From: Candidatus Omnitrophota bacterium
GTDB lineage: Bacteria; Omnitrophota; Gorgyraeia; Tantalellales; Tantalellaceae
Reading direction: 5' to 3'
NCBI GenBank assembly: GCA_018813285.1
Contig: JAHJBY010000033.1
Span: 69,157-133,156, forward strand
Length of the DNA: 64,000 nt
The notes beneath the pieces were generated by a model. It had not been told where the DNA came from, did not search any database, and was given only the letters and a program-made list of their open reading frames with translations. Position numbers and translations under genes: made by a program. Positions 15,072-61,100 of this stretch are shown here, in pieces; positions within the stretch are counted from its first letter, which is position 1; each line of letters starts with the position of its first letter.

Positions 15072-16319
15072 CTAAAACACGTAACTTATACCTATCCCGA
15101 CGACTTCGGCGGCGGCGGTGACTTTTGTACCCTGGCCGACTCTACTGTACAAATCACCTGCGCCACTGTCTGCCATGGCATTGAAGAAATGATGCTCCCA
15201 CGTTAGATCCACTCCCCAATTGTCGTCGATCTGGTAAGCGAGGCCCGCCGTAAGGTGATGTTCCATAATAACGCCTAAAAGCGCGTTGGCAAAAATCACT
15301 TTTTCACGAATCGGTGATTTCCCGTAATTATATCCTAAACGCAATTTCCATTTATCGTTTGGGGTGTATTCGGAACCCGCCGAAAAAACCCATTGATCTT
15401 GCCATCCGAACCCTCCCTGCTGCGGGCCGCGGTAACAAGCCTTTGTTCCCTCCCAATTGATCCACCTGGTATCATAAGTGATCTCAAGCTTTTTTATCGG
15501 TTTAAATGAAAACCCAATGGAAGCGCTGCGCGGCGCGTCAATAAGATGGAAAGACTCCTTGTACTTGTTGAAATGTGACATAAATGTTTTACTCTCGTAA
15601 GCCGCTCCGATAGAGATCATATCGTTAAACGTATAGAGTATCCCCGCTGTGAATCCGCCGCCAACAGCCATATCGATCTTTTTATGGCCCGCGGTTTCAG
15701 GATATGTTCCATTAGAAGCAGCAAATGCCATGTCTGTGCTCAACGACGAAAGCCCGATATTCGCCGCTAATCCTATGGAAAAATTATCGGTTATACCCAC
15801 AGCGATCGCGGGTGTCATCCTCGACTGAGTGAGATATATGAACCGGTCGTATTGTCCGACTCCCAACGCAGGGTTTAACCGCGGCTCCGCATATGATCCC
15901 GCAACTCCTGCCAAAGTAAAAAAACCACAACCGACAGCCACCGGATAGTCACCAATACCGGACGTCTGATAACTCAAGCCGGAATCCATACCGGGTAAAT
16001 AGTTAATCTTGCTCTTCTGTCTTTTTCCGGCGTTAGACAGGGCCCCTTCAGTATGCATGGAAACATCATGAGGCAGTAAATTAAGGTATTCCATGTCGAG
16101 GCGGTTCCCTATCCGCACAAGCCCGGCCGGGTTCTTTATCATACATGAAGTATCCGCCGCGGACGCCGTGGTCGCGCCGGCCATGGCGCCGTCACGCGCG
16201 CTGAAACCGAGCATCCGGGTGCCGTTAAGCGCCACAGCGTTTTCCGGGAACATAAATCCCAAAGCTACCGCCACAATAACGAAAAAGATCGCGCATCTAA
16301 CAATTGTGCGTGTTTTCAT
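15072..16319 (-). CDS. Outer-membrane beta-barrel transporter, FadL/TodX-like
   Basis: Signal peptide at MKTRTIVRCAIFFVIVAVALG. Alternating amphipathic strands and a C-terminal aromatic residue (ISYVF). Gly/aromatic-rich, typical of FadL-family barrels. Confidence 0.65.
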   Translation of the reverse strand: MKTRTIVRCAIFFVIVAVALGFMFPENAVALNGTRMLGFSARDGAMAGATTASAADTSCMIKNPAGLVRIGNRLDMEYLNLLPHDVSMHTEGALSNAGKRQKSKINYLPGMDSGLSYQTSGIGDYPVAVGCGFFTLAGVAGSYAEPRLNPALGVGQYDRFIYLTQSRMTPAIAVGITDNFSIGLAANIGLSSLSTDMAFAASNGTYPETAGHKKIDMAVGGGFTAGILYTFNDMISIGAAYESKTFMSHFNKYKESFHLIDAPRSASIGFSFKPIKKLEITYDTRWINWEGTKACYRGPQQGGFGWQDQWVFSAGSEYTPNDKWKLRLGYNYGKSPIREKVIFANALLGVIMEHHLTAGLAYQIDDNWGVDLTWEHHFFNAMADSGAGDLYSRVGQGTKVTAAAEVVGIGISYVF

Positions 16320-16630: not shown

Positions 16631-17179
16631 ATGATGAAGATCGGGGAAAAACTTCACAATATCAGAAAAGAAAAAAACATGACGCTGGAAGATCTATCAA
16701 AGAAAAGCGGTGTCGCTCTCGCGACGTTGAGCCGCATGGAAAACAACAGGATGATCGGAACACTGGACGCGCATAACCGAATATGCAAAGCGCTTTCCGC
16801 CTCTCTTGCCGATCTGTACCGCGAGATCGAAGACGCGTCCAAAACGGTGGAAACCGTTTCCGAGGTCGCGCGCATAGATCATTTTGTCCATTCAAAAAAA
16901 GTGAAGTATGAACTTCTCGTCGCGAAGACACCGGATAAAAAGATCCTCCCGTTAATGATAAAGCTGGCCGGAGGCGGCAAAACGCGTGAAGAACGAAATA
17001 AGACCGGGACGGAAAAATTTCTATACGTAATGACCGGTTCTGTAAACGCGGTCATCGGACATAAGCAGTATTCTCTGTGCCAGGGAGACTCACTTTATTT
17101 CGACGCGTCCCTATCCCATGTATTCCATAACAGGATGAAATCCGACGCTAAAGTGATATGCATCATTTCACCGGCGTAA
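16631..17179 (+). CDS. XRE-family HTH plus cupin-domain transcriptional regulator
   Basis: ORF track 16442..17179; real start at ATGATG 16631 preceded by AAGGAGGAG. N-terminal HTH (LEDLSKKSGVALATLSRMENN); C-terminal cupin-like beta region. Confidence 0.8.
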   Translation: MMKIGEKLHNIRKEKNMTLEDLSKKSGVALATLSRMENNRMIGTLDAHNRICKALSASLADLYREIEDASKTVETVSEVARIDHFVHSKKVKYELLVAKTPDKKILPLMIKLAGGGKTREERNKTGTEKFLYVMTGSVNAVIGHKQYSLCQGDSLYFDASLSHVFHNRMKSDAKVICIISPA

Positions 17180-17185
17180 GCCTCG

Positions 17186-18511
17186 CTAACCGGATCGGCT
17201 CTTTATCCTGCCTTTCCTGTGCGCCAGGAGAAAAGCACTGACTATTATAGAGTCGAACTGGGTCCCGGAGTTGTCCTTTATCATCTGCACGGCGACTTCG
17301 TCTATTTTTCTCTGTCTGTAGGGCCTGTCGCTTGTAATAGCGTCAAACGTATCCGCTACAAAGATTATACGCGCGACGAACGGTATATCATCGCCCTTTA
17401 AACCATCGGGATATCCGGCACCGTCGTATCTTTCGTGATGCGCCCGAACCTCCATCGCAATGTCACCTAACTCCCGGATCGGATTTAATATCGTAGCGCC
17501 GGTAACGCTATGTTCCTTGATCTTTTCGTATTCCTCACGTGTAAGCTGGCTTGTCTTATTCAGTATGGCATCCGGTACGCCGATCTTGCCGACGTCATGG
17601 AGAAGCGCCGCAATATGCAGGGTCTCCTTGAAATTCGGATACTCTTTCGCTTCCGGGAGTTCCTCGATCTCGTTCGCTATCGCAAGGGCGTACTGCGTAA
17701 CTCGTTCGGTATGCCCGTGTGTGTACTGATCTCTGGCATCGATGGCCGCCGCCAGAGAAATAGCGGTGTGAATGAACATCCTGTGTTCTCTCTCGTAAAG
17801 AACATGGACTTCACGGATCTTATCCTGAAGATCCTGAATAAGTTGAGTGTTGGAAAGCGCCATTGCCACGTCATTCGCAAGTGTGGTAAAAAAACTGATC
17901 TCCTGCCGCGAGAACTTTTTCTTTGAAAGTTTTTCTCCGAAAATAAAAACACCAAGCAGGTCCCGTTTGTAATAGACCGGAACGGCCACATCCCCTTTTA
18001 ACAGCTTCATCTGTTCCGCAACTTGCGGAAGCAAATCGAATGCTGTGTCATTTACGTTTTTTTTCTCGTATTTTTTCGCGATGTTAACAATGTCCGCGTG
18101 AACGATCGCTCCTGAATCCGAGATCTTATAGTTCAGCCTTTCGTGAAAAAGCCGCACCAAAGCGTTGTTCAGGGTCAGCTTAATAAACCCTACCGGGATC
18201 TTACATCCCTCGGATCCCTTACTATCAATGAGGTGATAATAACCTTTACCCTCAGAATATATCAACATGGCAATATGCGTGGTCCTCACCTGTTCATCGA
18301 TGAGCTTGACTATCATCTTTATCAGATGCTCAGGCTTCTTGAACCGTATCATGCTACGAGAAGCTTCTTCAAGAAAAACCTGGTAATCCAGTTCCGCTTC
18401 CTGCCGGTGGGCTTGCAGTTGGTTAGACATTTCCATACCGCCGCCCGGGGCGGCCTTCACCTTGTTAGCCATCCATTCCTCTATTTTCTGCCATTCACTT
18501 TTATAGCTCAT
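17186..18511 (-). CDS. HD-GYP domain phosphodiesterase with N-terminal GAF-like sensor region
   Basis: 441 aa. HD-GYP signatures: HTERVTQYA ... LLHDVGKIGVPD ... HHERYDGAGYPDGL. Confidence 0.85.
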   Translation of the reverse strand: MSYKSEWQKIEEWMANKVKAAPGGGMEMSNQLQAHRQEAELDYQVFLEEASRSMIRFKKPEHLIKMIVKLIDEQVRTTHIAMLIYSEGKGYYHLIDSKGSEGCKIPVGFIKLTLNNALVRLFHERLNYKISDSGAIVHADIVNIAKKYEKKNVNDTAFDLLPQVAEQMKLLKGDVAVPVYYKRDLLGVFIFGEKLSKKKFSRQEISFFTTLANDVAMALSNTQLIQDLQDKIREVHVLYEREHRMFIHTAISLAAAIDARDQYTHGHTERVTQYALAIANEIEELPEAKEYPNFKETLHIAALLHDVGKIGVPDAILNKTSQLTREEYEKIKEHSVTGATILNPIRELGDIAMEVRAHHERYDGAGYPDGLKGDDIPFVARIIFVADTFDAITSDRPYRQRKIDEVAVQMIKDNSGTQFDSIIVSAFLLAHRKGRIKSRSG

Positions 18512-18526
18512 ATCCGTTCCTTTTTT

Positions 18527-18901
18527 TTATGAAGATAGGCTGTGCTCCCCTGCCAGTTTCAGAACAATTTTCGCCAGCTGGCCCAGTACAAGCGGTTTCG
18601 TGATATACTCCGCGACACCGTAGGATCGGGCCTCGTCGATCTTGCCCATATCTTCCACCGCTGTGACCATGACCACTTTGCCCTGATAACACCGCTTTTT
18701 GAGCTCTTTCAAAGTCTCCATTCCATCCATAACCGGCATTTTTAGATCAAGAAGTATGATATCCGGGTTCTGCATCTCAGCAAGCACCAACGCTTCCCGT
18801 CCATTATTAGCTGTGACGACATCAAAATTCCGTTCTTTAAAAAAACTTTGCACAAAATCACAGATCTCGGTCTCATCATCCACAATCATTATCTTTATCA
18901 T
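18527..18901 (-). CDS. Single-domain response regulator (CheY-like receiver)
   Basis: 124 aa. IMIVDDE acidic pocket, DLKMP phospho-Asp region, VVMVTA, KP motif. Confidence 0.85.
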   Translation of the reverse strand: MIKIMIVDDETEICDFVQSFFKERNFDVVTANNGREALVLAEMQNPDIILLDLKMPVMDGMETLKELKKRCYQGKVVMVTAVEDMGKIDEARSYGVAEYITKPLVLGQLAKIVLKLAGEHSLSS

Positions 18902-19110
18902 CCTACGATGTCCTCCTCGACGCTATTGTCCGCTTTTTCAACAAGCTTTTCCAGCTCTTTCAAGCTCGCGACAGACTTTTCAACATAAGCATATGCCCCT
19001 TCATCCAGAAGTCGTGCTTTTGTCTCCCCCGAATCTTTAAAAGCCGTCACGATTATTACGTTGGACGCCTCATCGTCTATCGCCAGGATCTTGATCTTAT
19101 CTCTCCTCAT
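18898..19110 (-). CDS. Receiver-domain paralog with internal deletion; lacks the phospho-acceptor region
   Basis: 70 aa. KILAIDDEASNV aligns with beta1 of the downstream receiver, and IIVTAFKDSGETKARLLDEGAYAYVEK aligns with its beta4-alpha4-beta5. About 55 residues including the phospho-Asp are missing. Own AGGA RBS; ATGA overlap with the next gene. Confidence 0.45.
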   Translation of the reverse strand: MRRDKIKILAIDDEASNVIIVTAFKDSGETKARLLDEGAYAYVEKSVASLKELEKLVEKADNSVEEDIVG

Positions 19111-19122
19111 AATGTTTTTCCT

Positions 19123-21231
19123 TTACACGATCGAGAGCGCGGTGTTAAATAACAATTTAAAACTAGTCCCTTTACCCGGTTCACTATCAACACTGATACG
19201 GCCGTTATTTCTCTCAACAATCTGTTTCACAATAAAAAGTCCGAGGCCGGTACCGCTACCGGGTTCTTTGGTCGTGAAAAATGGATCCCAGATCTGGGCC
19301 AGTTGCTCCCGCGTAATACCGGAACCGGTGTCTTCGATGTTTATCTGCACATTGTTGCCCTTTTCTGACGCCTTTATCAATATCTTGCCGCGCCCCTTAA
19401 TTGCCTGCGCGGCATTCCTTATGAGGTTAAAGAATATCTCCTGCATTTGCTTTCGATCCGCGGAAATATTCGGAAGGTTTTTGGGTATCATTTTCTGTAT
19501 TTCCACATTATCAAGTTTAAGATCATGTTCAAGAAGCGCCATCACTTCTTCTAACTCTTTTTCTACGCTAACATCGTTTTCTTTCTCGTCTTTCGAGGGC
19601 TTGGAAAAAGCTGAAAGTCTTTTCGTTATGCTAGATGCCCTGTCAGTTTCGTTTATAACTTTCTCCATTATCTCCTGTGCCTTGTCGATAACCTCAGCCG
19701 GATCCGCGTTCTCATAGAACCCATCTTCCTTATTTAAAATGAATAACTCACATTGGCCGCGGATAATGCCTAACGGATTACATATTTCATGATTTATACC
19801 CGCGGAAAGTGTTCCGATAACCGCCATCTTTTCCCGCTGCGCCGCCTGCGCCTGGGCCTGGGAAAGTTTAGCAATGAGGCGGGCATTGGTAATAGCTATT
19901 GCTATTGTTCCGGCTAACGGAAGCAAAATATCGATATCGTCCCGTGTGAAATCTTCATCGGACTTCTTCGCCCCGAGTACCAGCAGGCCCAGAATGCTCT
20001 TGTCGCGCCGGAGGGATATGACCAAACTGCCGCCCAGGGTTTTGATAGTTTCGGCGGTATCGGAGGATAATTTCACGTCCCCGCTATCTCCCTTAGGTTC
20101 GATCATGCAATACCCGGATTTCTCCATATCCGCTATCAACGCCGGACAACAAGGCAAAACACACTCCTTGGCAGATGGTTCGCCCACGGAAGCCACAAGT
20201 TTGAAATCGCTGTCATCATCGTCGCGCAACAGAACGGATACGCAACGTAATTTCATTATTTCGCTGAGTTTGTTTGCCGTAAGACCGCCCAGGACCCCGA
20301 TATTCAGTACAGTTAATACGTCATCCGCGAAGGTTTTTAGCAGCTCTTTGTAGTCATATTTTTTCTGGAAAAGAAACTTATCAGTAACATTTACCAGCAC
20401 GTTTTCCAGCGGACGCAGTATGAGCACGATCACGAAAACCGACGGGAATAATGCGATCCACCGGTTCTCGAGCATATTCTCAAACACAAGAGACCCGAGA
20501 TACGCAAAACAGGCAAATACAGCGTAAGACGCCGCGAAAAGGCCGGTAAAAACAAGGGTCCTCTTTATTATGACGTCAATGCCAAGTAATTGGTGGCGCA
20601 CGATGGCATAGAAAATTACGCACGTATAAACGATCACGAAAAGATCATGTGGAACCATTTCCTGGATATTAAAAACCGGTAAAAAATGGACGAAACCGCC
20701 TATTAAAGCGATAAAAAATCCCCAGAATATATAATATAACTGTCTGGTCCTGGTCTTCATCATCACAGCATACAGTCTGCAAAAAGCGTATATGCAAATC
20801 ACGAAAAAAAACGCTATGAAAGCATAGAAGACGCCGCCCGGAACTATTTTCGACGATAAATTTAACCGTCGAATATCCAGGATAAAAAACGGAGAGTACG
20901 CGAACAGCAGAAAAAACACGCATATTATATATGTCGATCTTAAGACGATCTTATCGATTTTTCCGATCCACTTTTCTATGGTGGACAAAATGAAACGCAG
21001 GAATAACGCGGGCGCGAGGATGGCAAATAGATAAACCGCCCTCGAAAGAAACAGATCAGATAACCGGTCGTTGTACGCGATGATCGGGAAAAGGCACCAG
21101 ATGCCGGTAGCCATTGTCACTAAAATAAAATTTCTGTGAACAACGTTTTTGTTTTTCTGACACAAAACAAACATACTCAAGAAAATACATACCAGAGACG
21201 CGAGAAGCGAACTTATAGTATAAATTGTCAT
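19123..21231 (-). CDS. Sensor histidine kinase: polytopic N-terminal membrane domain, GAF-like region, HisKA, HATPase_c
   Basis: 702 aa; about 9-10 hydrophobic helices in the first ~300 aa. H-box (GINHEICNPLG). G1/G2 boxes (DTGSGI, GSGTGLGLFIVKQ). Confidence 0.85.
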   Translation of the reverse strand: MTIYTISSLLASLVCIFLSMFVLCQKNKNVVHRNFILVTMATGIWCLFPIIAYNDRLSDLFLSRAVYLFAILAPALFLRFILSTIEKWIGKIDKIVLRSTYIICVFFLLFAYSPFFILDIRRLNLSSKIVPGGVFYAFIAFFFVICIYAFCRLYAVMMKTRTRQLYYIFWGFFIALIGGFVHFLPVFNIQEMVPHDLFVIVYTCVIFYAIVRHQLLGIDVIIKRTLVFTGLFAASYAVFACFAYLGSLVFENMLENRWIALFPSVFVIVLILRPLENVLVNVTDKFLFQKKYDYKELLKTFADDVLTVLNIGVLGGLTANKLSEIMKLRCVSVLLRDDDDSDFKLVASVGEPSAKECVLPCCPALIADMEKSGYCMIEPKGDSGDVKLSSDTAETIKTLGGSLVISLRRDKSILGLLVLGAKKSDEDFTRDDIDILLPLAGTIAIAITNARLIAKLSQAQAQAAQREKMAVIGTLSAGINHEICNPLGIIRGQCELFILNKEDGFYENADPAEVIDKAQEIMEKVINETDRASSITKRLSAFSKPSKDEKENDVSVEKELEEVMALLEHDLKLDNVEIQKMIPKNLPNISADRKQMQEIFFNLIRNAAQAIKGRGKILIKASEKGNNVQINIEDTGSGITREQLAQIWDPFFTTKEPGSGTGLGLFIVKQIVERNNGRISVDSEPGKGTSFKLLFNTALSIV

Positions 21232-22352
21232 AAATAAACCAACTTTTTATTTTTGTCCGATATACTTTTTGCCGTTCTTGAGATTCTCTGATCAGTTATG
21301 ACTTCATACGCGCTTCGCAGTTCATTTATGCAAAATCCATGTTTTTCCGCCAGTTCCTTCATTTCTATGACCTTGTCAAAATCAACATTAGCTCCAATGG
21401 AATAATTTTCAAATTTTCGTTCCAATGTCAGAATCATGGTCTCCGCTATGCACGCATATGCCAGACCTTTATTTGGGCCAAAGAAAAAATTAAAATCAAC
21501 GTTGCTCGGCGGCCTTATCACGCCACCTTCGAACAACAATATATCATTTCTTCCTTCAAAAATATCTTCCGAAACGTTTTTGGGAACCGAAACATCACAG
21601 ACAATGGCTCCCGGAGGAAAATCATCCTCAGAAACCAAACTCTTGGGGTAGTTGGTCACAAACAGCGCCACATCCGCATGCTTCAAAGCTTCCCTTAAAT
21701 TCGTCGACACCTTCACTTCGCAGCTGTTTCCTATTGAGAGCAGATCATCTTTCTGGGCATCCAGCCTGGATTCGTTCCTGGCGACTAAAGTTACCTTTCC
21801 GACCTGGCCGGACATAACCAGCATTTTTGAACATACCTTCCCAATTTTCCCCGTTGCGCCCACGATCACGCAATTACTTTTTTTGAGATCAAGCCGGACT
21901 TGCGATGCCGCAAGAAATATCGCTTCTATTATGGAAACTATTGTATACGCGGAACCCGTCGTAATGGGAATATCCATTCTTTTAGCGAGTTCCAGGCCTC
22001 TGCGCCCCACTAAAGCGGTATAGGCCCCAAGACCAAGCATGCCGACGCCCATACTCTGAGCCAGTTCTCCGACTTTTACAAGATGACGCAAAAGAACGCT
22101 ATCGTTCATATTCAAAAATTGCTCGGGAACCATCATGCTGACAAAAAAGTAGCCCTCGATCTCTTTGCCGGTTTTGGACTTGATCCCGGTAATGGTCGAC
22201 TGGTAATAAGGATATACCCACCGCAAAACCCGTTCTGTCATCCTCTGTCTATCGGAATTTTCTTCAATGGAAAAATCTAAACGAGGCTCATCGTATGCCT
22301 TGGCGGTCATATGCCAATCGGTATTGTGCAAAAGAAATCCAAATTTATCCAT
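21228..22352 (-). CDS. Acyl-ACP reductase (AAR)-like NAD(P)-dependent reductase
   Basis: 374 aa. From memory it resembles cyanobacterial AAR: FGFLLH vs FGLIGH N-terminus, Rossmann VIVGATGKIGKVCSKML vs VAVVGATGDIGSAVCRWL, LVARNESRLD vs LTARNQERLD, C-terminal ...KHGF. Family assignment rests on recollection, not a search. Confidence 0.5.
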   Translation of the reverse strand: MDKFGFLLHNTDWHMTAKAYDEPRLDFSIEENSDRQRMTERVLRWVYPYYQSTITGIKSKTGKEIEGYFFVSMMVPEQFLNMNDSVLLRHLVKVGELAQSMGVGMLGLGAYTALVGRRGLELAKRMDIPITTGSAYTIVSIIEAIFLAASQVRLDLKKSNCVIVGATGKIGKVCSKMLVMSGQVGKVTLVARNESRLDAQKDDLLSIGNSCEVKVSTNLREALKHADVALFVTNYPKSLVSEDDFPPGAIVCDVSVPKNVSEDIFEGRNDILLFEGGVIRPPSNVDFNFFFGPNKGLAYACIAETMILTLERKFENYSIGANVDFDKVIEMKELAEKHGFCINELRSAYEVITDQRISRTAKSISDKNKKLVYL

Positions 22353-22785
22353 TTTCGCACTTCCTTTTTAGCGATAAAACCATTCCTTTAAGCGCCTTTT
22401 TTGCCTTTCTTTCCAGCATCGCGCCGACGTGTTTTTCCATATTGGGTACGCCCCAATCAAAATAAGCTTCCAGTTTGATATTTGAGCCGTTATCCCCTGT
22501 ATCTTCGATCCGCCATTCCCCGCAATAGATATAAAAATCCCCTTCGAGAGCTTTAAATGAGATGGTTTTGCTCTGTTTGTGGATGATCTCTTCCTCTGTC
22601 CACTCAAAAGGCGCTCCGTCAAAGTCGACCTGCCATCTCATTCGCAGGATATTTCCATTACCCGGCAGTTCAGTGATCTGTTTTACGCCGGAAATAAAAT
22701 CCGCGTACTTTTTAAAATCTTTCACGACCTTAAACACCTCCCCGGCCTTTTTGTTTATTTTATTCACGACTTTTATCCGTATCAT
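22345..22785 (-). CDS. SRPBCC (polyketide cyclase/START-like) ligand-binding protein
   Basis: ORF 22345..22869. Likely start MIRIKVVNKINKKAGEVFKVVKDFKKYADFI, typical of Polyketide_cyc2 N-termini. About 146 aa. Confidence 0.6.
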   Translation of the reverse strand: MIRIKVVNKINKKAGEVFKVVKDFKKYADFISGVKQITELPGNGNILRMRWQVDFDGAPFEWTEEEIIHKQSKTISFKALEGDFYIYCGEWRIEDTGDNGSNIKLEAYFDWGVPNMEKHVGAMLERKAKKALKGMVLSLKRKCENG

Positions 22786-22805
22786 CGAAAACTCCTTTCG
22801 AACAA

Positions 22806-22985
22806 TTAGATCGTTTTCTTCTCTTGTTTCTCTATCCAGTTGTCGATAGTTGATTTTTTGAAGCGCCAACTGGAGCCAACCTTAAAGGCCGGAAGCTTCC
22901 CCTGCTGGGCGTGCTTATAGATGGTAACCACCTTTATTTTCAGGTATTTGGCTACCTCATCTACGGTCATCATTTGACTGGCCAT
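22806..22985 (-). CDS. Excisionase-family helix-turn-helix DNA-binding protein
   Basis: MTVDEVAKYLKIKVVTIYKHAQQGKLPAFKVGSSWRFKKSTIDNWIEK matches the excisionase/MerR-like HTH_17 pattern. Start taken at internal MASQMM. Confidence 0.7.
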   Translation of the reverse strand: MASQMMTVDEVAKYLKIKVVTIYKHAQQGKLPAFKVGSSWRFKKSTIDNWIEKQEKKTI

Positions 22986-23168: not shown

Positions 23169-23256
23169 GGGGCGAAAGATTTTTCGCCCACGAATTCACA
23201 AAGGGCGAAAGATTTTTCGCCCACGAATTCACAAAGGGCGAAAGATTTTTCGCCCC
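23169..23256. terminator. Triple tandem hairpin array (33-bp period) downstream of pgpA
   Basis: Three copies of GGGCGAAAGATTTTTCGCCC (8-bp stem GGGCGAAA/TTTCGCCC) separated by the identical ACGAATTCACAAA spacer. On the minus strand the array is followed by CCTACCGCTTTTTT. Confidence 0.6.
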
Positions 23257-40983: not shown

Positions 40984-41061
40984 ATGGTCGGGGCGCTGGG
41001 ATTCGAACCCAGGACCTCCACGTCCCGAACGTGGCACGCTAGCCAAGCTGCGCTACGCCCC
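40984..41061 (-). tRNA. tRNA-Pro (anticodon CGG), CCA encoded
   Basis: Reverse complement reads CGGGGCGTAGCGCAGCTTGGCTAGCGTGCCACGTTCGGGACGTGGAGGTCCTGGGTTCGAATCCCAGCGCCCCGACCA. Cloverleaf with 7-bp acceptor, anticodon loop TTCGGGA, T-loop GTTCGAATC. Confidence 0.85.
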
Positions 41062-41183
41062 GACAACAAAATCCCACAAACGCGGGTATATTATCATGTT
41101 AATAAACATTTTGCAACACATCATTAGTGAAAGGGTTAACACAAAGAAAGCCGTCAGCCATAAGCTATCAGCTTTCAGCTAAA

Positions 41184-46245: not shown

Positions 46246-46274
46246 TTATATCACGCATATTTACTTCTTACGTG

Positions 46275-46420
46275 TACTTCTCCCATCCCGGCTGTCTTCG
46301 CGTTTTCACGCGACGGTCGGCACCCGATTCTCACAGGTTCAGACCCTCACGGATCTCGCGGGCTAATCTCCCTTGGGAGCATCACCGCCGGCTAAGGAAT
46401 TGCGCCTTACCCTGAAGTCT
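46275..46420 (-). ncRNA. FMN riboswitch (RFN element) aptamer
   Basis: Minus strand contains CAGGGUAAGG...AUUCC, AGCCGGCGGU, AGCCCGCGAG, GCCGAC and 3' GGGAUGGGAGAAG. These match the conserved RFN blocks in order, directly upstream of ribBA. Confidence 0.78.
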
Positions 46421-46472
46421 TAACCATGCCAACACATACGCGTTGTAAGTCAAGTGTTAAATACATTTAACC

Positions 46473-52177: not shown

Positions 52178-55100
52178 TTACAACGCCACAGCGGTCTTTG
52201 TGATGGCATCGATCTCCTGCCGGATCTCTTCGCCTATGTTCAGCCTGGTGATCTTAATCAACAGGTGAAGAATATCTTTTAGCCCTTTTTCTAATCGCTT
52301 TAAGGTTTCTTCCGCGCATTCTACGGCCATTATCCGGGGCGCGTCCTTCTCATCCAGTGTCCTCTTAAGAAGGCTCACCACTGCCACTTCCGGCAATATC
52401 CGATTTATCCTCTTTCCTGCGGCGTCATCCGTTAATACATTCTTTCCCAAAAGCACAAAACCGGGAACATTCTCTTTCCCTTCCGCGCGCATATAGTTGA
52501 TCAAATTTTCTGTTAAGGCCCCGGATTCGACCGCTGCCATTGAAACGTCTGCAGGCCGTATATTCACTCCCTTGACTTCCAGGCTTTTCAATACCTCTTT
52601 AACCGTATTGGATATATTTTCCTTCTTCCGGTTTGGATCAAGCACAACAGGTATGACATTCTTTAAACTTATGATTTCTTCCGGGATCGGAACATCACGC
52701 GTTGTGGCGACACATATATAAAAACGCTTATCCGCAAATGCCTTTATCGCGGGAATCATTTCGCCTATGTCAACACCCGGAAATCTTGTATCAATGACAA
52801 TCGCCTTCGGAACCTCAGGGATCAGCTCCATCAAACTCTTCTCCATACCCTTGATCTTTTCATCCTCATGCTTTGCCGCCATATTTTTGAAATCCAGAAG
52901 ATCGCCAAACGGCATTTTCGGGTTGTCATTAAGATATTTCACAAATCCGGAATGATAGCCGAGAAATCTGTCCCTGAGATCCGCCTTTTCTTCATCAGAA
53001 AGGCTGTCATCACGATCTGCGGTAACCGCTTCGCCAGCTGATTTGCAATACTCGTCGGCCCATTTTTCGTTATCACCCGGGACTATGGAAGGAAATCGAA
53101 ATTCTTCCCCGGCCAATGCCCTGGGATAATAATCCCGCATGATAGAACCCAACACATCATGATGAGCCTCATCCGGCAATACATCCTGCAATACATTAAG
53201 TATATTTCCCATGTCATCAAGAGTCTTGCCTTCCAGGGCCATCATCGCGCCTTCATCCAGGCCGCCGGCATACGGATGAATAAGGTATGGGAACATATTC
53301 GCAAGAGCCTGGATCTCCGCGATCCTTACCGCTTCCTTTATCGCGTCTTCCATATCCGTTTCTTCTCTCATTTCAATGAGCACATGCGGCTTTAAGCCAG
53401 CTTCCGTCGCGATCTTTTCGAAAGCTTCTTTATTTTTTACCGCGATAAATTCTATATTCGCGTAATTTTTTATGATCGGATATTTTTTCTCCATAGCGCC
53501 TTCATCCGCGCCCACGATCCCGATAACGGCTACAGGCGTGATTACCGGCGGCATCTTTTTCGTCGTCGGCGGCAAGGATGCCGGTCCTGACCTTATCGTA
53601 GCGTAAGGAACGGCTTTTCTCCCGACTACCGTATTTGTAATAAAAGCGGTTAGATTTACCACTGAATGAAGCGCAACAGCAACAGTTAACAACTGCCACA
53701 CACCGGTCTCAATCACGAAAGGCATAAATATATTTAATCCGGTAACAAGGAGCGCTGTTTTCCACCCGTGTTTATGCAACAGCACGAAAAATATCCCGGA
53801 TAATATCTGAAGAGACGCTAAAATAAGCACAGATGTCTGAACCGAAGGGCTCACCCCCATAAGCCCTGTGATAACAGGCGTAAGACACTGCGTTAAAAGA
53901 AGAGGAACGCCGAAGTATACCATCCTCTCTCGGAAAGGCGCCAGCAGCAAATGCTCCATACCGAATTTAGTCTGATTCCATAAAATGGAATCATCTTTCC
54001 CTATCCCAAGTTTGTTACGGGCACTATTTACGACAGACGAATAAGGTGCCTCTTTATGCATGGCATAAAACACCTGAAACGCGCCCGCCCTGTCACCTTT
54101 ACCCAAATAAGCATGGACCAACAATCTCCGCGCTTTTAGTCTGAACTCGCCTTTTAAAGACTTATCAAAAAATGGTATAGCGCCATCAAAATCCCTCGCG
54201 GCGAGATTCATTAAAGCCAGGCAAAAATATAAATTAGTTTTTAATTCTTCTTCCGCAAACTCGATTTCTCCCAGGTTATTTACCGCATTTTGAATCGAAT
54301 CAAATAACAACACTTTTTCTCTGATTGTTTTTATCTCTGGAAGGAATGTTCCTTTACCAGTAATAGCCCGGATAAGAGTTTCCGAAAACCTGGCATTAAG
54401 ATGACCAAGGAGAGTGCTTATAAACAGTTTGTCTTTTTCCCCTTGCCTCGAAAGCATCGCCGATAACACGGCGTGATACGCGCCGTCATTCAGAAAGAAT
54501 AAGTTAATAAGCTCCTTTGCCAATGTCTCGTTAAACGTTTTTTCGGAAATCGCTTTAATCCCATCAATTAAGACCTTATCGTTTATAAGCCGCTTTCTTA
54601 AGTTTTTCCTCTTTCTCTCTCTCAACCCGTCGTCAAACAATACGGATTTCCCGATCTCCTTAATGCAAATTTCAAACACGCTGTCCGCACTCTTACTGTA
54701 GGGAATCGTTTTTAGCAGATAAACCGACAGATTAAATACCTTATCGTTTTCATTCCGCACCTTCCAGAAAGTGAACATCTTCTCCAGCAACGCCGGCAAT
54801 TCTTCCAGGACAGTTTCGAACTCATCGCTCTTAAGACCCCCTATAACCGCAGCAACATCATCGTATGCTTTCGCTTTGCCAGAATCCGCATCTTTCTGTA
54901 ACTTTTCAACACGCCGCTGTTTCCTCTCCCGCGTTTCCTGTGACACTTTCCTGCCCGATTCTATCCGGTACACTTCTTCATGGCATGATATAATATCTCC
55001 GTATATCTGTATCTTTTCCCGCGCGTTTTTCCCTTTCGCGGATAATGTCAAAATATGCCCTTTCAATAAATCGTCCATCCGGGCTTTGTCGCCTCCTTTA

Positions 55101-58100
55101 AATACAAGCTCCTTTGACAAATCCTTCAATCTTTCACTTCCGGGAGCTATCTCTTGCGCCTTCCTTAGCAAAATCTCAGCCCTCACAAGCTCGCCATTCT
55201 GCAGCGCCCTCGCAGCCATCCCGAGAATAAGATTTACCGTCGGTTTTTTATCAGCATCCTCGAGCCCGGAAGGTTCAAGTTTCTGTTTTTCGGCAACCGC
55301 AACGTTTTTCTTCAGGCTTAACTTCCTCCTTTCAAGAAGACCCCGGACCTGTTCGAGCCTTTTTTTTCTTTCGGCTTCTTCTTTTTGATCTTCGCTCACT
55401 TTTTGAACGGCTTCTTCACGATCCTTTTTCATATAAGGTTTTTCAAGAATTTCTTTCTCTCTCGAACCTAACAAATCCTCCAGGCCGTCTTCCCGTGACC
55501 GTATCCAGGAAATGATCTCTCTTCTGCGCCTTTTTTCTATACTCGCATCCTTTCCTTCCTTTTCCAACTGCCGCAATTCGGTTTCCAGTCTCGCTCTCTC
55601 ACCCTTGAGTAGTGTTATCCCTTTACTTATTTCTTTTTCTTCTTTTTCGAACCGCGCCAAATCCTGCCTAGCTTTCGCTGATCCTGCTATTGTCCGGTTT
55701 ACATTCTTTCTAATTTTGTTAATCTTATCGACCCTTTCCTTCACTTCTCCCCTTGTCTCACCGGCCAGGTCATCTTCCGCGTCCAATTCTTTCAATACGC
55801 GACTTGCTTCTTCGAATTTGCCCTCATCAAAATATGCCTCGGCCAGGTTTAACCTGTTTTCCGGCGTGGAACTGAGTTCTGCCGCCTTCTTTAAATCTTC
55901 TATCCTATCCCCTGCCTTTTTCTGTCCCTTTGCCCGATCAACAAAAATATCTGCCATCTGTTGTCCCGCTGTCTTCCGTGCAAAATCGGCATCCAACGCT
56001 ACCGCTTCTTCATGCCGCTCGATCGCTTCAGCTGCCGCTTCTTCATTCCGTTCGACCGCTTCGGCTTCCGCTTCCCTGCCTTCTTCCAGCGCCAGGTCCC
56101 TGAGACCGACTTTCGCAAGAACGCAGCGTTTATCCATCCATAACGCCCGATAGAAGCTTTCTTCTGCTTTCCGAAAATCCCTAACTTCTCCCTTAAGATA
56201 CGTCAGTCCTTTAAGCACGGTAAGCCGCGCCAGTAACGGCCTGTTGTTTCTTTGTTTTCTGCTGGATAAATCAGAATACGCCCCCTGCAACACGTCGATA
56301 CATATACCTATTGCAAAACTGTCCGTGCGAAACGTGTCGGGAAAAAACTCATACATCTTTTCAAGATAATCAACTCCTTTTTCCACAAAAGCCGCATCCC
56401 TGTCCACCCCGGCAGAATACGCTCCCATATGTTCTATCACACTCTTATACATGCCGCGAAGTTCATCGATAAAGCCGCTGTCCTCTTTCAACTTCTCATC
56501 TAACTGCCTCGCTTTTTCCATGTTATCTATTGCTAAATCAAAAAGTTTTTGAGATTCCGTCATGTTTTTCGCCGAAACTTCGAATTCCGCCAGCCCCCGT
56601 CCGGACAGCGCCATAAACCTGTAAAGCTCGGCTTTTTCATAACCGGACTTTTCGGCTTTCAGGAAAAGTGAATAGGCCTTACTGAAATCATTCCTTTCAT
56701 ACGCTTCGATACCTGACCTAAACAAACTTTCCGCTTTAACTTCTTCCCCTGCTTTCGCGGCACGCCAGAAGCGAAAGCGAGCCCGCATCCTCCTCCCCCG
56801 GAACCTGTGTATATAACCCCGGATCATATACGCGTACTGACGGCACGCTTTAATATTTTCGAGTTTCTTAATGGCAAGTGTCAGGGCTCCAAGATCAACA
56901 CTCGTCGGCACTATTCCGCGGACAAGCATGGTTTCTCTTATTTGCCCCATTAAAAGCCGAAGAAGCTCCGTTTTATCTTCCACCGAGAGAAGTTTAGGCT
57001 CAAGGACCTCGATAATAAGTTTTCCGTTATTAAGACCAAACCGTTCATTCAATAAAACAATGCTCACTTTTTTTGCTCTATGAGGAGCACTGAACATCAC
57101 CTTCTTGAAACCATCATCCGAGATAAAATACTGCACCCTGGATGGAATACTCTTCCCCAGCCCTCCAAGTTCTTCTATCCGACTGGTCCAAGAGACGAAA
57201 AGTTCAATAATCTGGTCGTCATGCCTCGAGTCATACCTGAGCCTTATCGCTTCTTTAAGGTTTTCCGCGACAGTTTCCTCGACGTCCCGCGTTTCGTCCG
57301 AAGCAAGCCCCAGTTTAGCCTTCAGTAAATAAAACAACATCCATTCGTCAATGTTTTCAACATCTCCCGCTCTAAACTCATTCAGAAGCTCTTCTGACTC
57401 TTTGATCCTTGTCCTGGCAATTTTTGAGACATCCGCCTCTTGCAGCAACAGTTCGGCAAGTATCAATTTGGAGCTGTTCAAATATTCTCCCAGCTCTGTC
57501 TTTTTGACGCTTATAACCCACCTTAAGAGCGAAATCGCGCCCGCCCTTTTTTCGCCGTCCAGCCCCCGTTCCCTGAGGATATAGACAAGTTGTTCATACG
57601 AAATATCCTTCATGGAATCAAATGTTCCCGTGATATCAGTATTAAGCGGGCCGACTTCCTTTTCGAGCTTACCTATGCGCCCCCTAACCGCCGCCGTCAT
57701 ACCGGCTCTTTTCGGAATTTTCTCGAATTTTTTAATATATTCCTCTAACGCTTCCTTCTTCTGTCCGAGTTTCCATGTTTCCCGGGCTTTTTCGGCCATG
57801 ACAGAAATATTTCTCTCTCTGACTGCCTTCTTTATCTTTTCCTTTCTTGTCACGACATATTTTTCGATTTCCGCGTCTTTCTTTCTTTGCAATTCATTCA
57901 GTTTTACACGATGTTCCTGAGCTTTCGCGTTATTCTTAACCGCGGTGTCATCGCTCTTTTCGTACAACCCGATCAATTTCTCATGAGCGTCTGCGGCGTC
58001 CTCATCATTAAGACCTTCCCCAACAGCCTTTTCCAGATCATCCGCTGCCGGCCGTGTTCTGCCGTCGGCCAGATGCAAAAGCCCCCGTTTAAAATGTGCC

Positions 58101-61100
58101 CTGCCGTTTGACTGATTCAAAGATAAAGCTTTTTCATAATCTATCAATTTTTGTGCACGCGTCATGGGCGCGACTTCCGCGTATAAAAGATATGCGTTTG
58201 ACAATTCCCCAGTAACATCCGGGGCGTTTTCTCTGCCGCTTAACTTTTTCATAATAGATTTCGCTTTCCCGAACACCCTTTCTTTATATTTATCATCGGG
58301 TATGGCCTTCCCCTGTTCTATCAGCGCCTGTGCCAGCTTAAACCGGGCGGCATATCTCTTGCCGGCGCTGATATACCGCAAAGGAGCCTGCCACCACCCA
58401 TGCAGGGCTACGATCCTGCTGTGCGCCTTACCGGTAATCCTATCAAAATGTGATTTGAGTTCTTTTTTCCTGGTTTCATCCTCAATATTCTCGATATGTT
58501 CTTTAGCCGAAGAAACTTCATGGAGGACCTCCCGCAAGCGTTGTATTTTCGAGGCGGGTCTACGCAATACATCCCTCCATTTCCATTCCATTCTTTTTTC
58601 TATGCGCGCCTTCAGCGCTTCCACAAGTTTTGTTTTTATCTCGTCCAATTTATCTTTTGTTTCGTTTTTCTCTTTCTCATCAGTTATCTCATCGGGTTTG
58701 ATATTTTCTATCGCCTGCCGCGCGTACGTAATGACCTTCTCCTGTTCTTTCACTTTCCACGCGAATTCAATAACTTTCTCATAAAGCCCTGCATCTTTTC
58801 CATCCGCCTCGATCGCCTTGTCGTAATACTCAAACGTTTTCTTTCTATCATCGATAGGCCTGAAAATGAGATATTTACAGACTAAATACGCAACAATGAG
58901 TGTCCCGAGAGTTCCGATAACATAGGGCATTATTCCGTGCAGATGTGTACCGGCGGTTTCAAGCATGCCCATAAACTGCAGCACACCGACTCTGCGGCAA
59001 TACGACAACAACAGTAGCAAAGATAACAAAATAATGACTCCTCCAGCGCAAAGAACGACACTTTTCACGTCGCTATACGTCCTGTATCTGTTCATATAGC
59101 CTTCGGCGATCCCTGCATATGTCTCTTTTGAAACGTCTTTCAGCTTCTCGCATTTTCTGAAATCTGAAAATGCTTTTCCCTTCCAGTTCTTGTCACGATT
59201 TATCTCCGCCCTCAGAAGCCGCGCCTTAAGTTCCGCGTCGTTCAACCCGCCGGGCAACCTCTTCTTCATCCTGAACGAAAGAAACTTCCTTAACCTGGAA
59301 AAATCCTTCCATCTCAAGACCTCATTCAACTCTTCCAATGCCTCGTCCGTTCTGCCCACCAAAAGCTTAAGTGCTTCCGCTTTCAGCACCATCGCCTCCG
59401 CCGCGTAAGAAAGCACTCTTTTCGCCGATTCGACTGCTTTAAGACCCTCATCAGCGTATTCACTCGTAGCATCCGTATTCCCTTCCTTCGATTCCTCTTC
59501 GCTTTTTCCATTATACGCGGCCGCGAGAGCGATATAAGCTTTATGCAGTTCCAACGGATTATAAAGTATCCTCTCGAGTTTTATTGTAAGTTTGTGTGCT
59601 TCAAAATTGTATTTATCCTTTTCCACGGCTTTTTTCGCTTCAGCGAGCGCTTCCTCAAAATGGTTGAGGCTAAAATGCGCCCGGGCAAGCTTGTAATGCG
59701 CCTCGCTGTTTTCCGGGTCAAGTTTCACGGCCTCTTCGTACATAGCAATGGCGGAAAGGAGATTACGCGCGCGTTTTATCATTCCTTCTTCACCAAACTT
59801 TTCATATAAACCTTCTTCGTCCACTCCCGCAAACACATCCGCCTCATTGATCAACTGCTTGAAATCGCTTTTTGACAGCTCATAAGACGCTAATTCGTCT
59901 TCGGCGCTCTTTCTTTCCGTTTCAGGAATGATTTGAGTTTGTCTCGCGAGAAAACACTTTTTCTCTTCACCCGTCATATCATGCCAGGACTTCTGTTTCT
60001 TATCCGCATGACACGTCTTTATGTCCGTGTAAAGCACTTCAAGATCACTGATAAGTTTCTCGACATAAAGCGCTTTAAGATCATCGGCAAGTTTTTCAAC
60101 CACGTTCATCTTGCCTTTGCCTTTAGCGATAACATCTAAAATGGCGTCTTCAAGCCCCGGTTCTTCTGCCAAACGCGTAAGTTTAAACACGTCTTTTATC
60201 ACTTCCCGCAGAAATTCGTCAAACTCCGGTAATATCTCTCGACTTGACAGGTTTGACTTTTCGTACGCGAGGTCGATAAAACCTTCAAGTGCCGTAACGC
60301 GCGCCAGGCGGCTGATCTTACCGTTCATAAAAACAGCAAGCAGCAATCTCGCGAGTTTGCCGGTCTTGTCGTCTTTTTTAAGTTTTTCTGTTACATATTC
60401 CAGGAGTTCAAGCACCGGAAAATCCACTCCTTCGATCAATACTTTGTCCTTCTGTGCGCTCGCAAACGCCTCCGCCATCGCGTCAATCCCAACAACCTTT
60501 TTTGCCAGCCGTAGCCGCAGGTCCCGAAATCTTTCCTCAAGCATCCTTCGTTTCTTCCTGTCCGTTTCCGTATGTTTGATCCTTTCGAGTCTTTTGTCTA
60601 TTTCCCCTGTCAGCTCCACAAGCTTCTCTTTATAGCCATAAATATAATCCAACAACTTGTCGGCGACTTCCTCGGCGACCTTCTTCCCGTCGTCAGAATC
60701 GTCCGCCAATTCAACGGCATCAAGATAAGCGTTGCGCGCCCGTTGCAAAGCATCATCCCCCTTAGCATCATTTTCACCCTTTTCGGCTTTTCTTTTCTTT
60801 TCCTTCTCCTGCGCCTCGGCAAACTCTTTACTTGATTTTTCGACTTTTTTCTTCAATGTTTCTTTCTCTTCTTCCAATTTATCGAGTTTTTCTTTTATTT
60901 TTTGAACCCGTGCCTCTTTTTCTTTTATCGCTCCATCATTGCCTTCTTTTTGCTTACGAACTCCGAATATTTCCCCCTTAATTCTGCTTTGTTCTTCTAA
61001 TTGCAAAGCAAGTATCGCCTCATCAAGCTTCCCCCGAAGCTGATCGATTTCTTTGTCTAAAACGTCCCGTTCGCGTTTTAATCCATCCATTTCTCTTTGC

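Follow-up and report, generated by a model that had tools for sequence, protein, structure and literature searches.

A unit of seven tightly packed open reading frames (ORFs) was analyzed on the minus strand of a 64,000-nucleotide stretch of contig JAHJBY010000033.1 (assembly GCA_018813285.1) from a Candidatus Omnitrophota bacterium, hereafter the window. The unit runs from position 22985 to 17186, and all seven ORFs were confirmed. The first gene encodes a small DNA-binding protein of the HTH_17 (excisionase/MerR) type (22806–22985, 59 aa, Pfam HTH_17 1e-18) and carries a GGAGG ribosome-binding site ahead of its ATG. It is followed by the genes for an SRPBCC (Polyketide_cyc/START-like) hydrophobic-ligand-binding protein (22345–22785, 146 aa from ATG, Pfam Polyketide_cyc 6.5e-16; the maximal ORF extends to a TTG at 22869), an NAD(P)H-dependent thioester reductase of the COG5322 family of acyl-acyl carrier protein (ACP) reductase (AAR) and the PigE N-terminal domain (21228–22352, 374 aa, NCBIfam PigE 7.7e-52), and a sensor histidine kinase with the Pfam domains HisKA_7TM-GAF-HisKA-HATPase (19123–21231, 702 aa). 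The last three genes encode a receiver (REC) remnant (18898–19110, 70 aa), a single-domain CheY-like receiver (18527–18901, 124 aa, Pfam Response_reg 2.6e-27), and an HD-GYP phosphodiesterase with a GAF-like N-terminal region (17186–18511, 441 aa, Pfam HD_5 2.1e-38, HD 2.3e-21). From the HTH_17 gene downward the junctions are a 20-nt gap, an 8-nt overlap, a 4-nt overlap (between the reductase stop and the kinase start), a 12-nt gap, a 4-nt overlap, and a 15-nt gap. A sequence-only reading of this DNA had described seven head-to-tail genes with short overlaps or gaps and had named an HTH protein, an SRPBCC protein, an AAR-like reductase, a polytopic kinase, a CheY-like receiver, and an HD-GYP protein; coordinates and junctions match, and all domain assignments were upheld by Pfam and NCBIfam. 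Independent gene calls in public records of this organism's contigs (Candidatus Omnitrophota metagenome-assembled genome GCA_018822625.1 and an ENA contig) agree on all seven genes. The shared gene direction is weak evidence for an operon because nearly every gene of the window lies on the minus strand (the GC skew of the window is negative throughout); what goes beyond chance is the tight packing combined with a gene order that is kept across genomes.

The reductase matched the PigE profile of NCBIfam over its full length (residues 3–367 to profile positions 1–360, E = 7.7e-52) and, in the PDB, matched PigE (4PPM, 8e-28) and AAR (6JZQ, 5e-22). The AAR profile TIGR04058 was matched over residues 57–341 (1e-32) with a score of 113.8 bits, below the equivalog cutoff of 449.7. 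The motif around the catalytic Cys294 of AAR (FACFAEAM) aligned with YACIAETM around Cys301 of the window reductase, and an NADPH motif (GATGKIG) was found at residues 165–171 (G165-A166-x-G168-x-x-G171). Across 29 diverse homologs neither Cys301 nor the GATGxIG motif varies, and the catalytic cysteine is kept in 92 out of 93 collected members of the reductase family. Judged by these matches, the protein is a member of the COG5322/PigE-N family and not an AAR equivalog or orthologue. Its public annotation is “shikimate dehydrogenase”, and an identity as a shikimate or amino-acid dehydrogenase was rejected since Pfam Shikimate_DH covers only the Rossmann domain (residues 149–266). The AAR-like assignment of the sequence-only reading, which had named an unrelated dehydrogenase family as the alternative to be checked by profile search, therefore stands.

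All characterized members of the reductase family convert a thioester to an aldehyde and pass the product to a partner (PMC8341465, PMC6498172), and the conserved active-site residues suggest the same reaction for the window reductase. Cyanobacterial AAR (TIGR04058; 6JZQ/6JZU) belongs to the same family, with the NADPH motif (GxGxxG) and the catalytic cysteine aligned, and hands its aldehyde to a partner protein, analogous to the role proposed below for the SRPBCC protein. It serves hydrocarbon synthesis, whereas the window reductase has an SRPBCC partner and a signaling context, and no gene resembling an aldehyde-deformylating oxygenase (ADO) was found among the identified neighbors in the window. 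The reductase domains of PigE (the best sequence match), TamH, and KecF, which act in the synthesis of prodigiosin, tambjamine, and koreenceine, also turn a thioester into an aldehyde that is channeled onward (PMC8341465, PMC9594044, PMC6498172). These domains are fused to pyridoxal phosphate-dependent aminotransferases within pigment or alkaloid clusters, whereas the reductases of the type described here stand alone or are fused to SRPBCC, with no aminotransferase.

The SRPBCC protein scored 59.2 bits against Polyketide_cyc (gathering threshold 23.4), and its closest sequence match in the PDB was a weak one to TTHA0849 (2D4R, 2e-05). At least 11 of the best 120 reductase homologs are SRPBCC-reductase fusions, and in those of four comparison loci (L014, L016, L026, and L097) the SRPBCC domain is N-terminal, mirroring the gene order in the window. 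Of 22 kinase-linked reductases, 15 are accompanied by an SRPBCC protein; among the 72 other reductases there is no such case. The fusion of the two proteins in many homologs, in an arrangement that matches the gene order, argues that SRPBCC and reductase work together. Two further arrangements were observed: the SRPBCC-reductase pair is tandemly duplicated in L007:7562-10743, and reductase, SRPBCC, reductase, and a GMC oxidoreductase precede the kinase in L010:6540-10383. Both suggest a diversification of the product.

The kinase contains no loop longer than 20 aa and no periplasmic or extracytoplasmic domain. Its seven-transmembrane (7TM) domain has a predicted structure that matches the folds of G-protein-coupled receptors (GPCRs), including lipid receptors, a likeness of topology and not of homology that comes from a model based on an 11-sequence alignment (pTM 0.65); the alignment is shallow, the word-index search with the 7TM domain having returned 20 mostly partial proteins. 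The overall architecture is that of PrsK, the HisKA_7TM kinase of XrtA/PEP-CTERM systems, and the two align over their full length (residues 10–694 to positions 5–677 of TIGR02916). The window kinase differs from PrsK in its score, 138.5 bits and below the cutoff of 300, and in its neighborhood, which lacks a PrsR-type sigma-54 regulator, an exosortase, and PEP-CTERM genes.

In the 124-aa receiver the residues D8, D9, D52, T80, and K102 are present and the phospho-acceptor site is intact. The 70-aa protein matched only positions 65–109 of the Response_reg profile (Pfam, E = 0.003); its strand beta1 (ILAIDDE) runs straight into beta4-alpha5, and some 55 residues, among them the acceptor aspartate, are deleted. 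The deletion boundaries were set by eye (ILAIDDE against IVAIDDE), as MAFFT aligned the N-terminal beta1 strand of the shortened protein with the relatives' beta4. Full-length receivers of 120–133 aa occupy the same position in L009, L012, L013, L026, L105, L114, L102, and L171, and the 70-aa ORF recurs in independent assemblies (L001–L003). On this evidence the ORF is a lineage-specific in-frame deletion derivative of a receiver, as the sequence-only reading had proposed. The HD-GYP protein carries its motifs at residues 305 (HD), 358 (HHE), and 366 (GYP), displays weak Pfam GAF matches within the N-terminal region, and has no receiver domain. Its matches in the PDB were V-cGAP3 (5Z7C, 2e-36), PmGH (4MCW, 5e-32), and PA4781 (4R8Z, 1e-24). 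Cyclic di-GMP (c-di-GMP) is the probable substrate and is favored as the nucleotide because GGDEF partners occur in the related loci L105 and L124. Within the window itself no GGDEF or PilZ protein was found by phmmer of all ORFs with one GGDEF and two PilZ queries.

Conservation of the neighborhood, which the sequence-only reading had put forward as a check across genomes, was found. The closest relatives, with 46–58% reductase identity, keep the arrangement. The order in L009 is FadL, SRPBCC, reductase, 7TM-GAF kinase, REC, REC, and GAF-HD-GYP, with a convergent XRE-cupin gene; L007 carries two tandem SRPBCC-reductase pairs followed by kinase and REC, and L170 and L171 share the core. The reductase family was present in more than 600 genomes in a scan of one genome per species. 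SRPBCC (free or fused), reductase, and 7TM kinase follow each other in this order in 8 out of the best 80 loci, mostly with receivers next; the eight are one Planctomycetia locus and every one of the seven Omnitrophota loci in which the sequence continues past the downstream end of the reductase. With metagenome loci counted, a 7TM kinase directly follows the reductase in 21 loci besides the window, at 25–58% identity to the window reductase, with differing flanks and an often recurring 4-nt overlap at the junction. An HD-GYP gene follows the kinase in 6 of the 14 reductase-kinase loci with enough downstream sequence. The related loci include a REC-HD-GYP protein in L102 and L114 and, in L105, a 3xREC-GAF-GGDEF protein together with GAF-HD-GYP.

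In a neighbor-joining tree the 21 kinase-linked reductases split from 72 others in 30 out of 30 bootstraps. A second clade (28 out of 30) belongs to the Anaerolineales. Here the reductase is always followed by a REC-GGDEF protein and by a 9xGAF-PAS-HisKA kinase some 2300 aa long. Seen in L050:8001-17044 and in 13 further Anaerolineales loci, this arrangement connects the reductase family independently with c-di-GMP signaling and contains no membrane sensor. The third clade, of Bacillota and Armatimonadota, lies within a housekeeping birA-coaX-dus-...-greA-lysS locus, and these neighborhoods in the Bacillota gave no hint to the product. In these and related genomes the reductase homolog always comes after a soluble protein some 300 aa long that has no Pfam match (L032:3804-4718 and 35 other loci, e.g., L027:7072-8001); the pair lies within the housekeeping locus and gives the enzyme family a second partner.

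These data bear on the simplest alternative, an ordinary two-component/HD-GYP operon that lies beside an unrelated dehydrogenase gene and an SRPBCC gene and has no functional link to them. The window-wide strand bias and the shikimate dehydrogenase annotation would fit such a chance neighborhood, and scans of the segment 16300–23400 leave room for internal promoters, which the consensus scans neither showed nor excluded; the numbers of sites (17 promoter-like, 13.1 expected; 2 terminator-like, 8.2 expected) were uninformative on operon structure. However, the order is kept in 21 other loci with different flanks and down to 25% reductase identity, the clades of the reductase are specific to their contexts, the reductase turns up again in a reverse search that starts from the sensor domain, and a PilZ-reductase fusion exists (both described below). 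The Shikimate_DH match is likewise confined to the Rossmann domain, whereas the full-length match is to PigE-N/AAR. The linkage of reductase and kinase is not due to chance, and an absence of any functional link is very improbable.

For the reverse search, 80 metagenome loci were fetched by the 7TM domain alone, of which 57 were informative (at least 1.2 kb of upstream sequence). The slot immediately upstream of the sensor was occupied by the reductase in 9 out of 57 loci, and a lipid-type enzyme was encoded within 4 kb upstream on the same strand in 30 out of 57 (including the nine reductases). The enzymes found in this slot were S-adenosylmethionine (SAM)-dependent methyltransferases, ICMT/PEMT-type membrane methyltransferases, CMAS-like methyltransferases, pairs of desaturase-like FAD oxidases, sets of ketoacyl synthase (KAS), ACP, and either FabA or a thioesterase, and GMC oxidoreductases, the last of which also lie between reductase and kinase in L010 and L118. 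In L102 the 7TM kinase is preceded by a PilZ-methyltransferase, an ACP, a NAD_binding_4 thioester reductase, and a fatty-acyl-AMP ligase (FAAL), and is followed by REC, a second kinase, and REC-HD-GYP. The set in L102 is regarded as a probable non-homologous route to a product of the same kind, encoded at the corresponding place in the locus, and no other single observation argues as strongly for a functional tie between the 7TM sensor and an acyl-derived, aldehyde-type molecule.

The same material allows the question of whether the reductase might itself be a cytoplasmic sensor of metabolic state, responding to NAD(P)H or acyl-ACP and contacting the kinase directly, with catalysis being secondary. 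The 4-nt start/stop overlaps of the reductase and kinase genes in many loci would suit such a contact, as would the pairing in the Anaerolineales with a cytoplasmic 9xGAF-PAS kinase and REC-GGDEF in loci that contain no membrane sensor. Set against this are the catalytic cysteine in 92 out of 93 members, the SRPBCC fusions, which imply a hydrophobic product that needs handling, and the filling of the slot by full biosynthetic sets (FAAL-ACP-thioester reductase, KAS-ACP-FabA) that are implausible as mere sensors. A sensory reductase is considered improbable.

Fusions link parts of the module on the sensor side and on the enzyme side. The 7TM-GAF sensor is fused to HD-GYP in L107, L115, L143, L148, and L154 and to GGDEF-Trans_reg_C in L124, and Pfam confirmed four fusions on the enzyme side: PilZ-COG5322 reductase (L124:1976-3511), REC-KAS (L098:821-2509), PilZ-CMAS-like methyltransferase (L102:1934-3274), and PilZ-radical SAM (L115:5420-6610). 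The PilZ and REC fusions indicate that, in related systems, the lipid enzymes are themselves targets of c-di-GMP and phosphorylation. They favor, or at least agree with, a different explanation, a loop of membrane-lipid homeostasis in which the 7TM domain senses the physical or compositional state of the membrane and not a specific product, signals by way of the receivers and the turnover of cyclic dinucleotides, and has the reductase and SRPBCC protein as effectors of lipid remodeling, hence as outputs and not as makers of a signal. The DesK-DesR-Des thermosensor of Bacillus subtilis is the precedent: the gene of a lipid-modifying enzyme adjoins that of a kinase that senses within the membrane, although DesK is a 5-TM sensor, its response regulator binds DNA, the desaturase is the regulated target, and no c-di-GMP component is involved. 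Consistent with a loop of this kind, the fused enzymes in related loci include the reductase, a methyltransferase, a radical SAM protein, and KAS, the alternative cassettes are of membrane-lipid type (ICMT/PEMT and CMAS-like methyltransferases, desaturase-like FAD oxidases, KAS/ACP/FabA), and the kinase has no extracytoplasmic domain. However, the enzyme genes would be co-transcribed and translationally coupled upstream of the kinase and not placed under a separate regulated promoter, and the window has neither a DNA-binding response regulator nor a PilZ protein to return the output to the enzyme. An aldehyde would also be unusual as a bulk end product of membrane lipids and no downstream lipid-assembly enzyme is present, the chemically diverse cassettes with one sensor scaffold resemble a diversification of signals, and the soluble SRPBCC carrier together with a neighboring FadL-type channel (described below) points to the trafficking of a discrete molecule. 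Lipid homeostasis is rated as unlikely, though it is the most serious of the competing explanations.

The lipid enzyme, the 7TM sensor, the receivers, and the cyclic-dinucleotide enzymes form a conserved, co-inherited module. The preferred reading, to which we assign a probability of about 0.45, is that the reductase and the SRPBCC protein make and carry a hydrophobic aldehyde that the 7TM kinase senses, with signaling onward through the receiver to the HD-GYP protein and probable feedback. The reductase, by way of a Cys-thioester intermediate and NAD(P)H, would take an acyl-thioester, most probably acyl-ACP from housekeeping metabolism, and reduce it to a hydrophobic aldehyde. The SRPBCC protein would hold this reactive, insoluble product and hand it to the membrane, where the HisKA_7TM bundle, predicted to be GPCR-like, would detect it or a derivative inside the bilayer and the GAF domain would pass the signal to the kinase core. 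The kinase would then phosphorylate the CheY-like receiver (in this lineage the neighboring receiver has lost its acceptor aspartate), and the phosphorylated receiver would modulate the receiver-less GAF-HD-GYP protein and change the level of c-di-GMP or another cyclic dinucleotide. The output would likely feed back on the enzyme. The XRE-cupin and HTH_17 proteins and the FadL-type channel are probable accessories for transcription control and for moving the hydrophobic molecule through the outer membrane. The sequence-only reading had suggested a lipid-derived signal that controls c-di-GMP; conservation, fusions, and non-homologous replacement give strong support to the proposed link between enzyme, two-component system, and c-di-GMP, whereas the sensing of the product by the kinase is a step that we infer.

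Several points weigh against the signal reading. For this clade of reductases the function of the module is a prediction from sequence, the direction from product to sensor is an assumption, and the flow could be reversed or circular. The step from receiver to phosphodiesterase is a guess, as the HD-GYP protein of the window carries no receiver domain, and HD-GYP is absent from 8 of the 14 loci mentioned above and thus not obligatory. V-cGAP3, to which the window protein aligned best in the PDB, is specific for 3'3'-cGAMP, whereas PmGH and PA4781 are c-di-GMP enzymes. The resemblance of the sensor to GPCRs is topological, the window contains no dedicated ACP or aldehyde-consuming enzyme, FadL is associated with the module in few loci, and the PilZ and REC fusions fit a role of the enzymes as effectors as well as a role in feedback.

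Among known systems the closest analogue in logic is the diffusible signal factor (DSF)/Rpf system of Xanthomonas, which the sequence-only reading had missed. In DSF/Rpf a clustered enzyme makes a hydrophobic molecule derived from a fatty-acyl-thioester, a membrane sensor kinase is encoded in the same cluster, a phosphorelay leads to an HD-GYP protein that lowers c-di-GMP, and the synthase is under the control of its own system (PMC4159695, PMC3609779); each of these features would have its counterpart here by analogy, and proteins of the RpfG type (REC-HD-GYP) occur in the related loci L102 and L114. The parts are different. A COG5322 reductase and an SRPBCC protein stand in place of the crotonase-family RpfF, and no enoyl-CoA hydratase-like gene is present; the kinase has no REC or HPt domain, whereas RpfC is a 5-TM hybrid kinase with both; separate receivers and GAF-HD-GYP contrast with the REC-HD-GYP of RpfG; and the proposed product is an aldehyde and not a cis-2-enoic acid, the input parts sharing no sequence homology. 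The window operon is not a member of the Rpf system because none of the defining Rpf proteins is present, and the kinship is one of logic.

The agr (AgrBDCA) and ComQXPA systems also combine, within one operon, an enzyme that makes or modifies the signal, a polytopic kinase that lacks a large extracellular domain, and a receiver, and in both the enzyme and the signal vary on a receptor scaffold that is kept. Their signals are peptides (a thiolactone in agr, isoprenylated ComX) and their outputs are DNA-binding regulators and not cyclic-dinucleotide enzymes. By comparison with these precedents, the logic of the module would be that of a synthase-receptor operon of the DSF/Rpf or agr/ComQXPA kind. 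The sequence-only reading did not recognize the arrangement as a described system, and no description of it was found in literature searches on HisKA_7TM, COG5322, AAR together with kinase and HD-GYP, SRPBCC with AAR, and c-di-GMP in the Omnitrophota.

A broader reading would extend the signal hypothesis to a widespread and so far unrecognized class of lipid signaling among uncultivated bacteria, including the Omnitrophota and some Planctomycetota, in which each GPCR-like HisKA_7TM-GAF receptor comes with an exchangeable lipid-enzyme cassette and has its output through a kinase, HD-GYP, or GGDEF. The cassette would set the chemistry of the autoinducer and c-di-GMP would serve as read-out and as feedback through PilZ, giving DSF-like quorum “dialects”. 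This extension is put forward tentatively and we regard it as doubtful in its full breadth.

The genes next to the operon include candidate accessories. An XRE-HTH and cupin regulator gene (16631–17179, plus strand, 182 aa, Pfam HTH_26 4e-10, Cupin_2 4e-09) is convergent to the operon, its end lying 6 nt from the HD-GYP stop and marking the downstream boundary. The same convergent position is taken by an XRE-cupin gene in L009, L013, L022, and L026, and such genes occur in 13 loci with a 7TM sensor, some of which contain no reductase. Divergent from it lies the gene of a FadL/TodX-family outer-membrane channel for hydrophobic compounds (15072–16319, minus strand, 415 aa, Pfam Toluene_X 2.2e-21). 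Channels of the FadL type carry long-chain acyl signals (PMC9938287), a FadL gene lies directly upstream of SRPBCC in L009, and FadL-like genes are found in the 7TM-sensor loci L131, L136, and L156; an association of FadL with the module is possible but weaker. The HTH_17 protein matched TIGR01764 above its cutoff (62 bits) and MAD1 with 77.6 bits, below the cutoff of 80, and an HTH_17 gene is also present upstream in L009, L010, L012, L013, and L170. Two other explanations of this gene were rejected: a MADS anti-phage system, for which PADLOC gives generic domain matches and no other MADS component, and a prophage excisionase, as no integrase or phage genes lie nearby.

The flanks of the operon are rimO-pgsA-pgpA genes on one side and the mraZ-rsmH dcw cluster on the other. 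The spacer between the pgpA stop and the operon measures 273 nt and contains, directly after the pgpA stop, a hairpin array made of a 33-bp tandem repeat (23170–23255, minus strand, 2.6 copies, 100% matches in TRF). The repeat unit is a GGGCGAAA/TTTCGCCC hairpin with an 8-bp stem in perfect copies, it is unique to the array within the window (6 matches against 0.01 expected), and the array has a predicted RNA fold of -53.4 kcal/mol (z = -7.85) followed by UUUUUU. The array is a plausible terminator-like upstream boundary of the operon and may represent a terminator array or an element of the repetitive extragenic palindromic (REP) type. Elsewhere in the window a giant gene, a single ORF of at least 3,940 codons on the minus strand, reaches the window edge (52178–64000), and an Rfam scan identified an FMN riboswitch (46271–46423, minus strand, 70.6 bits) and a tRNA gene (40988–41062, minus strand).

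If the signal reading is true, it would at once assign a function to three sizable, so far uncharacterized groups: to the non-cyanobacterial COG5322 reductases that are annotated as shikimate dehydrogenases, to their SRPBCC partners, and to the HisKA_7TM sensor domain, and the PilZ-enzyme fusions would add lipid metabolism to the processes controlled by c-di-GMP. What would be new is a DSF-like logic assembled from different and previously undescribed parts. With exchangeable enzyme cassettes beside one receptor scaffold, both new lipid signal chemistries and the ligand of a bacterial GPCR-like 7TM domain could be sought along a direct, testable path. For the Omnitrophota, a phylum of ultra-small and mostly uncultivated bacteria, the module would provide the first handle on cell signaling.

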